64,000 nucleotides of DNA from Eledone cirrhosa (taxonomy: Eukaryota). The notes below the pieces were generated by a model that did not search any database, was not told the DNA's origin, and saw nothing but the letters and a program-made list of their open reading frames with translations. The position numbers were made by a program, and so were the translations under genes. The stretch spans positions 138,136,001 through 138,200,000 of the forward strand of contig OZ024742.1 in the NCBI GenBank assembly GCA_964016885.1, read 5' to 3'. Shown here piece after piece: positions 44,113-48,842 of the stretch; the first letter of the stretch is position 1; every line of letters starts with the position of its first letter.

Positions 44113-44527
44113 ATTGGAATAAATGCTCTGAAATAGCGATATATATGTGAATATAGACATAGAATATTCGAAAATATTCTGTATGTTTATAATAAACATT
44201 TTGAAGACCTAATCGCTATAGAATAGAATACGTCACGTATTACAATTAGATTCTCGATAAAAGCAAGGGAAGTAATCTACGCGTTTCAATCTTGTTAGAA
44301 ATCATCAGGACTACATATCCAGTGCTTTTATCGAGAATGACACAGCTAGAGACTTATAGAATACTTAGCTGTGTACAGGAACTGGTTTGAAAGAGCGGTT
44401 GCCGGTCCGGCAGAAATTAGAAATTGGAATAAATGCTCTGAAATAGCGATATATATGTGAATATAGACATAGAATATTCGAAAATATTCTGTATGTTTAT
44501 AATAAACATTTTGAAGACCTAATCGCT
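44113..44527 (-). repeat. Inverted 1.3-unit head of the 310-bp array (HHR at 44272-44314, minus strand)
   Basis: Reverse complement of the array unit, joined directly to the forward array and preceded by (TA)n. Confidence 0.92.
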
Positions 44528-47500
44528 TTATTCCAATTTCTAATTTCTGCCGGACCGGCAACCGCTCTTTCAAACCAGTTCCTGTACACAGCTAAGTATT
44601 CTATAAGTCTCTAGCTGTGTCATTCTCGATAAAAGCACTGGATATGTAGTCCTGATGATTTCTAACAAGAATGAAACGCGTAGATTACTTCCCTTGCTTT
44701 TATCGAGAATCTAATTGTAATACGTGACGTATTCTATTCTATAGCGATTAGGTCTTCAAAATGTTTATTATAAACATACAGAATATTTTCGAATATTCTA
44801 TGTCTATATTCACATATATATCGCTATTTCAGAGCATTTATTCCAATTTCTAATTTCTGCCGGACCGGCAACCGCTCTTTCAAACCAGTTCCTGTACACA
44901 GCTAAGTATTCTATAAGTCTCTAGCTGTGTCATTCTCGATAAAAGCACTGGATATGTAGTCCTGATGATTTCTAACAAGAATGAAACGCGTAGATTACTT
45001 CCCTTGCTTTTATCGAGAATCTAATTGTAATACGTGACGTATTCTATTCTATAGCGATTAGGTCTTCAAAATGTTTATTATAAACATACAGAATATTTTC
45101 GAATATTCTATGTCTATATTCACATATATATCGCTATTTCAGAGCATTTATTCCAATTTCTAATTTCTGCCGGACCGGCAACCGCTCTTTCAAACCAGTT
45201 CCTGTACACAGCTAAGTATTCTATAAGTCTCTAGCTGTGTCATTCTCGATAAAAGCACTGGATATGTAGTCCTGATGATTTCTAACAAGAATGAAACGCG
45301 TAGATTACTTCCCTTGCTTTTATCGAGAATCTAATTGTAATACGTGACGTATTCTATTCTATAGCGATTAGGTCTTCAAAATGTTTATTATAAACATACA
45401 GAATATTTTCGAATATTCTATGTCTATATTCACATATATATCGCTATTTCAGAGCATTTATTCCAATTTCTAATTTCTGCCGGACCGGCAACCGCTCTTT
45501 CAAACCAGTTCCTGTACACAGCTAAGTATTCTATAAGTCTCTAGCTGTGTCATTCTCGATAAAAGCACTGGATATGTAGTCCTGATGATTTCTAACAAGA
45601 ATGAAACGCGTAGATTACTTCCCTTGCTTTTATCGAGAATCTAATTGTAATACGTGACGTATTCTATTCTATAGCGATTAGGTCTTCAAAATGTTTATTA
45701 TAAACATACAGAATATTTTCGAATATTCTATGTCTATATTCACATATATATCGCTATTTCAGAGCATTTATTCCAATTTCTAATTTCTGCCGGACCGGCA
45801 ACCGCTCTTTCAAACCAGTTCCTGTACACAGCTAAGTATTCTATAAGTCTCTAGCTGTGTCATTCTCGATAAAAGCACTGGATATGTAGTCCTGATGATT
45901 TCTAACAAGAATGAAACGCGTAGATTACTTCCCTTGCTTTTATCGAGAATCTAATTGTAATACGTGACGTATTCTATTCTATAGCGATTAGGTCTTCAAA
46001 ATGTTTATTATAAACATACAGAATATTTTCGAATATTCTATGTCTATATTCACATATATATCGCTATTTCAGAGCATTTATTCCAATTTCTAATTTCTGC
46101 CGGACCGGCAACCGCTCTTTCAAACCAGTTCCTGTACACAGCTAAGTATTCTATAAGTCTCTAGCTGTGTCATTCTCGATAAAAGCACTGGATATGTAGT
46201 CCTGATGATTTCTAACAAGAATGAAACGCGTAGATTACTTCCCTTGCTTTTATCGAGAATCTAATTGTAATACGTGACGTATTCTATTCTATAGCGATTA
46301 GGTCTTCAAAATGTTTATTATAAACATACAGAATATTTTCGAATATTCTATGTCTATATTCACATATATATCGCTATTTCAGAGCATTTATTCCAATTTC
46401 TAATTTCTGCCGGACCGGCAACCGCTCTTTCAAACCAGTTCCTGTACACAGCTAAGTATTCTATAAGTCTCTAGCTGTGTCATTCTCGATAAAAGCACTG
46501 GATATGTAGTCCTGATGATTTCTAACAAGAATGAAACGCGTAGATTACTTCCCTTGCTTTTATCGAGAATCTAATTGTAATACGTGACGTATTCTATTCT
46601 ATAGCGATTAGGTCTTCAAAATGTTTATTATAAACATACAGAATATTTTCGAATATTCTATGTCTATATTCACATATATATCGCTATTTCAGAGCATTTA
46701 TTCCAATTTCTAATTTCTGCCGGACCGGCAACCGCTCTTTCAAACCAGTTCCTGTACACAGCTAAGTATTCTATAAGTCTCTAGCTGTGTCATTCTCGAT
46801 AAAAGCACTGGATATGTAGTCCTGATGATTTCTAACAAGAATGAAACGCGTAGATTACTTCCCTTGCTTTTATCGAGAATCTAATTGTAATACGTGACGT
46901 ATTCTATTCTATAGCGATTAGGTCTTCAAAATGTTTATTATAAACATACAGAATATTTTCGAATATTCTATGTCTATATTCACATATATATCGCTATTTC
47001 AGAGCATTTATTCCAATTTCTAATTTCTGCCGGACCGGCAACCGCTCTTTCAAACCAGTTCCTGTACACAGCTAAGTATTCTATAAGTCTCTAGCTGTGT
47101 CATTCTCGATAAAAGCACTGGATATGTAGTCCTGATGATTTCTAACAAGAATGAAACGCGTAGATTACTTCCCTTGCTTTTATCGAGAATCTAATTGTAA
47201 TACGTGACGTATTCTATTCTATAGCGATTAGGTCTTCAAAATGTTTATTATAAACATACAGAATATTTTCGAATATTCTATGTCTATATTCACATATATA
47301 TCGCTATTTCAGAGCATTTATTCCAATTTCTAATTTCTGCCGGACCGGCAACCGCTCTTTCAAACCAGTTCCTGTACACAGCTAAGTATTCTATAAGTCT
47401 CTAGCTGTGTCATTCTCGATAAAAGCACTGGATATGTAGTCCTGATGATTTCTAACAAGAATGAAACGCGTAGATTACTTCCCTTGCTTTTATCGAGAAT

Positions 47501-48842
47501 CTAATTGTAATACGTGACGTATTCTATTCTATAGCGATTAGGTCTTCAAAATGTTTATTATAAACATACAGAATATTTTCGAATATTCTATGTCTATATT
47601 CACATATATATCGCTATTTCAGAGCATTTATTCCAATTTCTAATTTCTGCCGGACCGGCAACCGCTCTTTCAAACCAGTTCCTGTACACAGCTAAGTATT
47701 CTATAAGTCTCTAGCTGTGTCATTCTCGATAAAAGCACTGGATATGTAGTCCTGATGATTTCTAACAAGAATGAAACGCGTAGATTACTTCCCTTGCTTT
47801 TATCGAGAATCTAATTGTAATACGTGACGTATTCTATTCTATAGTGATTAGGTCTTCAAAATGTTTATTATAAACATACAGAATATTTTCGAATATTCTA
47901 TGTCTATATTCACATATATATCGCTATTTCAGAGCATTTATTCCAATTTCTAATTTCTGCCGGACCGGCAACCGCTCTTTCAAACCAGTTCCTGTACACA
48001 GCTAAGTATTCTATAAGTCTCTAGCTGTGTCATTCTCGATAAAAGCACTGGATATGTAGTCCTGATGATTTCTAACAAGAATGAAACGCGTAGATTACTT
48101 CCCTTGCTTTTATCGAGAATCTAATTGTAATACGTGACGTATTCTATTCTATAGCGATTAGGTCTTCAAAATGTTTATTATAAACATACAGAATATTTTC
48201 GAATATTCTATGTCTATATTCACATATATATCGCTATTTCAGAGCATTTATTCCAATTTCTAATTTCTGCCGGACCGGCAACCGCTCTTTCAAACCAGTT
48301 CCTGTACACAGCTAAGTATTCTATAAGTCTCTAGCTGTGTCATTCTCGATAAAAGCACTGGATATGTAGTCCTGATGATTTCTAACAAGAATGAAACGCG
48401 TAGATTACTTCCCTTGCTTTTATCGAGAATCTAATTGTAATACGTGACGTATTCTATTCTATAGCGATTAGGTCTTCAAAATGTTTATTATAAACATACA
48501 GAATATTTTCGAATATTCTATGTCTATATTCACATATATATCGCTATTTCAGAGCATTTATTCCAATTTCTAATTTCTGCCGGACCGGCAACCGCTCTTT
48601 CAAACCAGTTCCTGTACACAGCTAAGTATTCTATAAGTCTCTAGCTGTGTCATTCTCGATAAAAGCACTGGATATGTAGTCCTGATGATTTCTAACAAGA
48701 ATGAAACGCGTAGATTACTTCACTTGCTTTTATCGAGAATCTAATTGTAATACGTGACGTATTCTATTCTATAGCGATTAGGTCTTCAAAATGTTTATTA
48801 TAAACATACAGAATATTTTCGAATATTCTAGGTCTATATTCA
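44528..48842 (+). mobile_element. Tandem array of ~13.9 near-identical 310-bp units, each with a hammerhead ribozyme (non-LTR retrozyme-like)
   Basis: TTCCAATTTC recurs at 44531, 44841 ... 48561 (period 310). I saw only three substitutions (47845, 48722, 48831). The array ends in a long (TA)n tract. Confidence 0.92.
44646..44688 (+). ncRNA. Minimal type I hammerhead ribozyme, first of 14 copies (every 310 bp to 48676-48718)
   Basis: GTAGTC-CTGATGA-TTTCT(AACA)AGAAT-GAAA-CGCG-TA-GATTAC. Helix I is GTAGTC/GATTAC, helix III is the palindrome ACGCGT, and predicted cleavage follows GUA at 44682. Confidence 0.88.

Follow-up and report, generated by a model that had tools for sequence, protein, structure and literature searches.

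The two-armed array and its hammerhead motif

The window, a stretch of 64,000 nucleotides (nt) from Eledone cirrhosa (contig OZ024742.1, positions 138,136,001 to 138,200,000), carries at 44113-48842 two opposed arms of a 310-bp repeat with a putative hammerhead ribozyme, lying between (TA)n tracts. It is proposed that this array is one insertion of a non-autonomous retrozyme of the type lacking long terminal repeats (non-LTR), mobilised by a Penelope-like element (PLE), and that a probably circular 310-nt RNA was copied into (TA)n by the PLE acting in trans; we regard this reading as likely.

Tandem Repeats Finder (TRF) reports a period of 310 with 14.0 copies and 99% matches at 44527-48851. 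The plus arm (44527-48842) comprises 13.92 units of 310 bp with three substitutions in total, in agreement with the sequence-only reading, which had counted about 13.9 near-identical units: twelve units (1-10, 12 and 13) are identical, the substitutions falling in unit 11 (one) and in unit 14, ahead of the TA tract (two). The inverted arm (44113-44527) is 415 bp long with a single substitution at 44289. The unit has a GC content of 34%, and no open reading frame (ORF) of at least 150 aa was found in the array; the reported absence of an ORF (at this cut-off), the (TA)n flanks and the 415-bp inverted copy were thus all seen again. Unit phase 1 corresponds to window position 44683, the base just 3' of the predicted cut, and the outer ends of the arms are called sites A and B. 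The features of the locus are as follows.

44086-44112, no strand: left (TA)n target tract, from the sequence; the arm end passes straight into it
44113-44527, minus: B arm (the "inverted head") of 1.34 units with a single substitution, its RNA-sense 3' end facing out at site B (phase 165) and its inner junction showing microhomology of 1 nt
44113-44147, minus: 35-nt PLE-type tail (phases 131-165), at this end only; the A/B offset found in 96/97 two-armed insertions, tail as defined in PMC8557442 and PMC11167929
44272-44314, minus: B-arm copy of the hammerhead motif, in which the substitution at 44289 disrupts the first Watson-Crick pair in helix II
44527-48842, plus: A arm, 13.92 head-to-tail units of 310 bp, its RNA-sense 3' end facing out at site A (phase 130, TA microhomology reaching phase 139)
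44646-44688, plus: first of 14 type I hammerhead motifs (every 310 bp up to 48676-48718), cut predicted after 44682 and a dimer predicted; from descriptor and covariation, dimer rule from PMC4209133
44622-44710, plus: 16-bp helix I extension (44622-44637 with 44695-44710) in the predicted fold; most insertion-wide A>G changes fall here
48843-48946, no strand: right (TA)n target tract, from the sequence and TRF

A descriptor scan recognised a type I hammerhead motif in 14/14 units of the plus arm, with the predicted cut after 44682 + 310k. The motif consists of CUGAUGA, a 6-bp helix I with one G.U pair, a 4-bp helix II, GAAA, a palindromic ACGCGU helix III and GUA, and cleavage is predicted to require a dimer because helix III is this palindrome. 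One minimal type I hammerhead per unit, as had been claimed, therefore holds for the plus arm; the scan missed the motif of the B arm because its helix II has lost the first Watson-Crick pair through the change at 44289. The call comes from the descriptor and from covariation among relatives, cleavage being a prediction. Older relatives of 67-80% identity are found in the window and the fetched loci. In a five-sequence alignment (three of the 310-bp family and two relatives, representing three lineages only), 96.9% of cells pair and 15 of the 26 pairs changed on both sides, compared with 42-50% pairing in slid controls. UUGAUAA replaces CUGAUGA in one older subfamily, which would presumably swap the 3-8 core pair. 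Among 34 haplotypes of the family (see below), fixed changes in the catalytic domain are limited to the free position 7, to position 10.1 (pair restored) and to loop 2, helix I substitutions retain pairing, and no insertion-wide change falls at invariant core positions.

The unit had also been described as highly structured, and this agrees with a monomer fold of z = -4.4 against shuffles, either linear or circular, which recovers the 16-bp helix I extension and both hairpins named in that description. The extension would keep the ends of a cut monomer together in this model. A constrained dimer helix III fold has the same energy as the free fold and was not used as evidence. Rfam microRNA matches were rejected as TA tracts.

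A dispersed family with two fixed ends

A genome search for dispersed arrays, proposed by the sequence-only reading, was carried out with exact patterns in the 3.0-Gb genome. It returned 4,177 copies of the 43-nt hammerhead motif, 16,447 copies of a 30-nt unit marker, 1,041 B ends, 611 A ends on the forward strand and a further 962 reverse A-end matches (these with double counts); control patterns gave 0 matches. These figures correspond to at least about 1,000-1,200 insertions, or about 1,600 if a mean of about 10 units holds, and unit lengths differ among loci (308, 310 and 311). The 310-bp repeat is a dispersed, young, non-coding multicopy family and is not confined to one locus. For each of two older subfamilies (L145-L204) the search gave about 2,500 candidates; their identity is about 94% and their arms are far shorter than those of the young family; in the 60 loci fetched with 1.5-kb flanks, the arms mostly have one to three units. 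That the homogeneity or the array itself is an artefact of assembly or polishing has a negligible probability: loci L033, L045, L061, L062 and L088 do adjoin N gaps, but haplotypes and unit lengths differ by locus, and the unit is present in short-read contigs of run X2 at a word depth of about 1-3 x 10^5, together with many joints of one arm to the other and loose ends in TA, evidence against such an artefact.

The architecture was analysed in 113 insertions: the window's own and 112 others within the first 200 Mb of contig C1, reached through the matches listed first for the patterns of the motif, the B end and the A end; most loci were found by TA-containing patterns and 12 by the hammerhead alone. 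Excluded were re-fetch overlaps (L036, L044, the second insertion of L034 and the first pair of L073), the first pair of L062 (a likely duplicate by a gap), two inner fragments of L045, and copies below 90% identity. Two arms are present in 97/113 insertions, always divergent and head-to-head with RNA-sense 3' ends outward, and 16/113 are single-armed (11 A and 5 B; two of these at N gaps). One A end (phase 130-139) is paired with one B end (phase 165-172) in 96/97 two-armed insertions, with no A+A and no B+B combination, the remaining one extending beyond the fetched stretch. Since each locus was anchored on one end, the test of this pairing is the identity of the mate. The A-B offset is 35 nt, and the older subfamilies end at the same two sites.

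The outer ends pass into (TA)n tracts, within which a target-site duplication is not readable. The sequence-only reading had expected variable, permuted ends in TA tracts; on the contrary, the outer ends lie at two fixed sites and the inner junction alone varies, with overlap in 63/95, blunt joining in 11/95 and filler in 21/95. The mean arm length is 4.3 units for A and 5.5 units for B (maximum about 45), the two lengths being weakly correlated (rho 0.26, p 0.012), and both arms exceed two units in 62/96 insertions. The "inverted head" is indeed inverted, but rather than a mere head it is a second full arm. At one locus (L037, 3099-3370), 272 bp of unrelated GC-rich sequence were caught at the inner junction between the arms.

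These features point to a PLE. The standard PLE form is an inverted, 5'-truncated copy with a 30-40 nt tail at one end (PMC8557442, PMC3846280), and the 35-nt offset agrees with this tail. ORF-bearing PLEs of the same genome (L240, L246 and L250) have the same inverted two-arm form with ends in TA. In vitro, purified PAc protein, a PLE enzyme, cleaves both strands of AT-rich DNA and extends them; it is a predicted dimer, and the two internal start sites of its reverse transcriptase (RT) delimit the 30-40 nt tail (PMC11167929). The array has the marks of a non-autonomous PLE, namely an inverted head-to-head copy, a tail at one end and an AT-rich or microsatellite target. The 310-bp family is very probably mobilised by a PLE, and the claim that the array is one PLE-made insertion rather than an ordinary satellite is upheld by dispersed copies, TA targets, the PLE tail and a single haplotype per insertion. 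By its sequence, the array would also classify as a non-LTR retrozyme, with units within about 150-450 bp, a hammerhead in consecutive units and a dispersed family.

A candidate active PLE, recognised from its sequence and without homology to the 310-bp unit, lies at L235 2509-5322 (minus strand). Its 938-aa open frame contains an RT, a zinc-finger-like linker and a GIY-YIG domain, is Neptune-like by its linker, and lies between 1.06-kb direct repeats with a UUGAAAA-core hammerhead and a palindromic helix III. The window itself contains PLE ORF fragments at 837-1682, 33396-33944, 36463-37515 and 56500-57288, one detected by a GIY-YIG match (36466-37422) and the other three by tblastn to PLE-like ORFs of fetched loci. 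GTAAGT donor-like and TTTCAG acceptor-like motifs flank site A (phases about 36-151) and are conserved in relatives, a possible retained intron of a pseudo-LTR (pLTR); they are clearest in L101, L097 and window 42760-43009, and the donor is weak in the young family.

The copied template

Haplotypes were compared in 87 two-armed insertions of at least three units (939 units; L074/75 aligned in part), a haplotype being fixed when present in at least 90% of covered units across both arms. There are 34 haplotypes, 24 of them in one insertion only, and 120 unit-private changes. Nearly all insertions keep a single unit haplotype across their two arms. Haplotypes fixed in every unit, such as 118A>G in 23/23 units of L099, indicate that new haplotypes pass through a one-unit bottleneck and recur in both arms. 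The predicted cut site is crossed 1,009 times by the arms with 0 per-unit insertions or deletions, and inner ends within 5 nt of it number 4/192 against 6.2 expected; preferential stops at the cut site were rejected on this basis. Scar-free crossings without a pile-up of stops favour a closed circle over a cut monomer. The copying of a small RNA circle had been proposed earlier from near-zero divergence. The core of that proposal stands, but near-zero divergence alone is no proof of a circle, for which shared haplotypes and scar-free junctions argue instead. The monomer circle is quite likely the usual template.

A cut, unligated monomer held by helix I, on which the RT hops the nick onto the same molecule at each pass, would produce the same single-haplotype arms and editing marks; helix I with its 16-bp extension brings both ends together, and two haplotypes carry a 1-nt insertion 2-3 nt past the cut site. 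This template is nevertheless judged distinctly improbable, given the lack of unit-level scars and of stops piled at the cut site; moreover, template jumps by non-LTR RTs are usually imprecise.

The spectrum of insertion-wide changes is skewed. In a greedy network the origins are A>G 18, C>T 6, T>A 5, T>C 4 and A>T 4, with at most 3 for each of the others, compared with 10 A>G and 14 T>C among unit-private changes (18 vs 4 against 10 vs 14, Fisher p = 0.007). Paired positions account for 16/18 A>G origins, and A>G at unit positions 20, 259 and 276 occurs on three backgrounds each and with a 5' U each time, which fits the ADAR preference. We lean towards RNA editing as the source of the insertion-wide A>G excess.

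Later growth of short PLE-type insertions as an ordinary satellite by unequal exchange, a model discussed in 10.64898/2026.07.22.740005, could be read from the repeated variant blocks in the long arms of L035, L037, L054 and L074. By their appearance, these blocks reflect later local duplication or assembly error, and none was seen in the window array, unlike those four long arms. Such growth would require both opposed arms to lengthen and to converge on a single haplotype with an internal divergence of about 0.04%, while the arms of older relatives are shorter, not longer, and the strand-biased A>G excess is left unexplained. An ordinary satellite would show few long head-to-tail loci, arbitrary ends and gradual turnover, whereas the family has more than 1,000 short loci, fixed ends and opposed arms, with turnover in the longest arms only. 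We consider this origin highly unlikely.

Several observations, in addition to the repeated variant blocks, weigh against a ribozyme-made circle copied by a PLE, and some of them suit another normal template, an uncut linear multimer from an existing array, used by the same PLE twin-start process with no need of a circle. The hammerhead looks weak: the Hammerhead_1 scan recommended by the sequence-only reading gave no Hammerhead_1 row for the unit, the sole hammerhead row in Rfam was Hammerhead_HH9, whose 19.2 bits fall short of the gathering score of 52, and helix II begins on a U.U mismatch, as it does in the axolotl HHR_Amex2 (PMC7229834). Minimal PLE hammerheads cleave weakly (PMC4209133), and 8/9 Xenopus retrozyme dimers did not cleave in vitro (10.64898/2026.07.22.740005). 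For PAc, ribozyme cleavage is dispensable for insertion and unprocessed RNA is the main substrate in vitro (PMC11167929). In L070 and L123 a single-unit variant is in register in both arms, and in L089 the haplotype switches in both arms after the outer two units; hence both arms can derive from one RNA, which was then either a multimer or a template on which both RTs switched together. Against multimers as the normal template, haplotypes fixed in every unit need the one-unit bottleneck, and the three in-register cases stand against the 24 private fixed haplotypes and 64 other changes that are unshared at positions both arms cover; at a further locus, L064, a mosaic at site 276 is confined to one arm. 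A rough estimate from the ratio of in-register to private fixed cases puts multimer templates near 3-5% of events, assuming about four shared units per insertion and private haplotypes born at the last copying, and we hold the multimer to be an unlikely usual template. As for the A>G excess, the network is polarised on the window haplotype and unrooted, with some shared changes counted more than once, and selection for structure through G.U wobble pairs or recombination between haplotypes could add to the A>G count. Finally, with the profile of the relatives, no PLE ORF joined to a matching pLTR was found in 50 of 10,597 GIY-YIG candidates, the fetched loci and 60 older-subfamily loci.

The preferred reading, a monomer circle copied by a PLE, may be put as a sequence of steps. 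Existing arrays would be transcribed, and adjacent hammerheads are predicted to pair via ACGCGU and cut out monomers, which a host ligase may close by analogy with other retrozymes, part of the RNA monomers presumably being A-to-I edited. A PLE RT-endonuclease dimer would then nick both (TA)n strands, and two cDNAs would be primed on a single RNA, at sites A and B respectively, as the observed ends suggest. Each RT would round the circle about 4-5 times on average, after which the two cDNA ends would be joined by microhomology, consistent with the observed junctions. A minority of insertions would likely arise from uncut multimers, and the longest arms may have been lengthened by secondary local duplications. 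We advance only tentatively, and with less than even confidence, the fuller proposal that a dimeric PLE RT performs natural rolling-circle reverse transcription from two starts 35 nt apart on one ribozyme-made circle, making both arms at once, with A-to-I edits fixed in all units as the main source of haplotypes.

Related systems and neighbouring repeats

In metazoan non-LTR retrozymes, RNA circles have been shown and reverse transcription of the circle by a PLE has been proposed (PMC7229834); retrozymes have also been linked to pLTRs, and satellite-type expansion has been discussed (10.64898/2026.07.22.740005). The 310-bp family shares with them (same two sources, as far as their accessible text goes) non-coding, low-GC tandem units of about 300 bp, one type I hammerhead in each, thousands of copies and the presence of PLEs in the genome. 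Found here alone in that comparison are arms of several units in opposite orientation, A and B ends at fixed sites, a single haplotype in each insertion and editing-like A>G changes, in a family known from its DNA.

The inverted, 5'-truncated head-to-head copy with a 30-40 nt tail at one end is shared with PAc Poseidon (PMC11167929), Naiad, Neptune and Chlamys (PMC8557442) and Adineta Penelope (PMC3846280). Endonuclease-bearing PLEs also share AT-rich or (TA)n targets, two internal RT starts and a hammerhead upstream of the starts; they differ from the 310-bp family, which has no ORF, in which the repeat is the whole element and both arms are multimeric. Chlamys MRC1 is likewise a non-autonomous PLE derivative with multicopy head-to-tail insertions, but its clade is described without canonical hammerheads, and elements of the MRC1 type match an autonomous partner at the 3' end (PMC8557442).

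A further parallel is found in LINE-1 elements. In LINE-1 twin priming, two target-primed cDNAs are joined head-to-head by microhomology, as in the 310-bp family, but there the position of the second start varies, and the arms come from separate, non-overlapping stretches of a single linear RNA. In the 310-bp family both start positions are constant, and the complete unit is repeated in either arm.

A literature search, which left most subscription papers outside its reach, found none that describes retrozyme arrays of two arms with A and B ends paired, or editing marks in such arrays, and no published genomic evidence for the circle-copying step of retrozymes. Retrozymes and PLE tails are already known; what the locus and its relatives add is unusually direct genomic footprints of that copying step. 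The enzyme that mobilises animal retrozymes and the copying of circles are proposed and left open in the accessible literature (PMC7229834; 10.64898/2026.07.22.740005), and how PLEs form tandem and inverted structures is flagged as open in PMC8557442. The family offers more than 1,000 young insertions with a PLE tail, strict A/B pairing and one template haplotype each; for work in vitro it provides a defined substrate of 310 nt, a pair of predicted starts and a target. Should the A>G marks prove to be edits, RNA editing would be feeding back into germ line DNA on a large scale, and if the rolling-circle reading is true, the genome archives RNA circles together with their edits.

Sequencing runs X1, X3, X4, X8, X10 and X12, labelled as six other organisms, each contain one 340-nt single-haplotype contig at a depth of 10-365 (searched with window 43900-45500 and 44683-45100), for which traces carried over from a highly abundant repeat are the simplest explanation. 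These contigs were used neither for circles nor for transfer because a tandem array yields the same contig. The raw DNA run X21 had 0 reads matching the unit.

Three hammerhead families are nested within one kilobase of the window. An older relative of the same superfamily lies at 42760-43160 (minus strand) with 76-78% identity, ends at an A-like site in a TA tract and has a different hammerhead at about 42896-42943 with a CUGAGGA core, a 4-bp helix III and a GUC site. At 43165-44070 there is a second, unrelated two-armed inverted element with arms 83% alike and its own hammerhead at 43831 (palindromic ACUAGU, GUU site). Elsewhere in the window are another hammerhead motif with a long helix II at 31474 (minus strand), similar to motifs in L059, a long near-perfect palindrome at 49177-49420, and a 196-bp tandem repeat of 2.7 copies at 49532-50064. 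The flanks of L031-L144 (about 1.1 Mb) contain about ten more hammerhead families.

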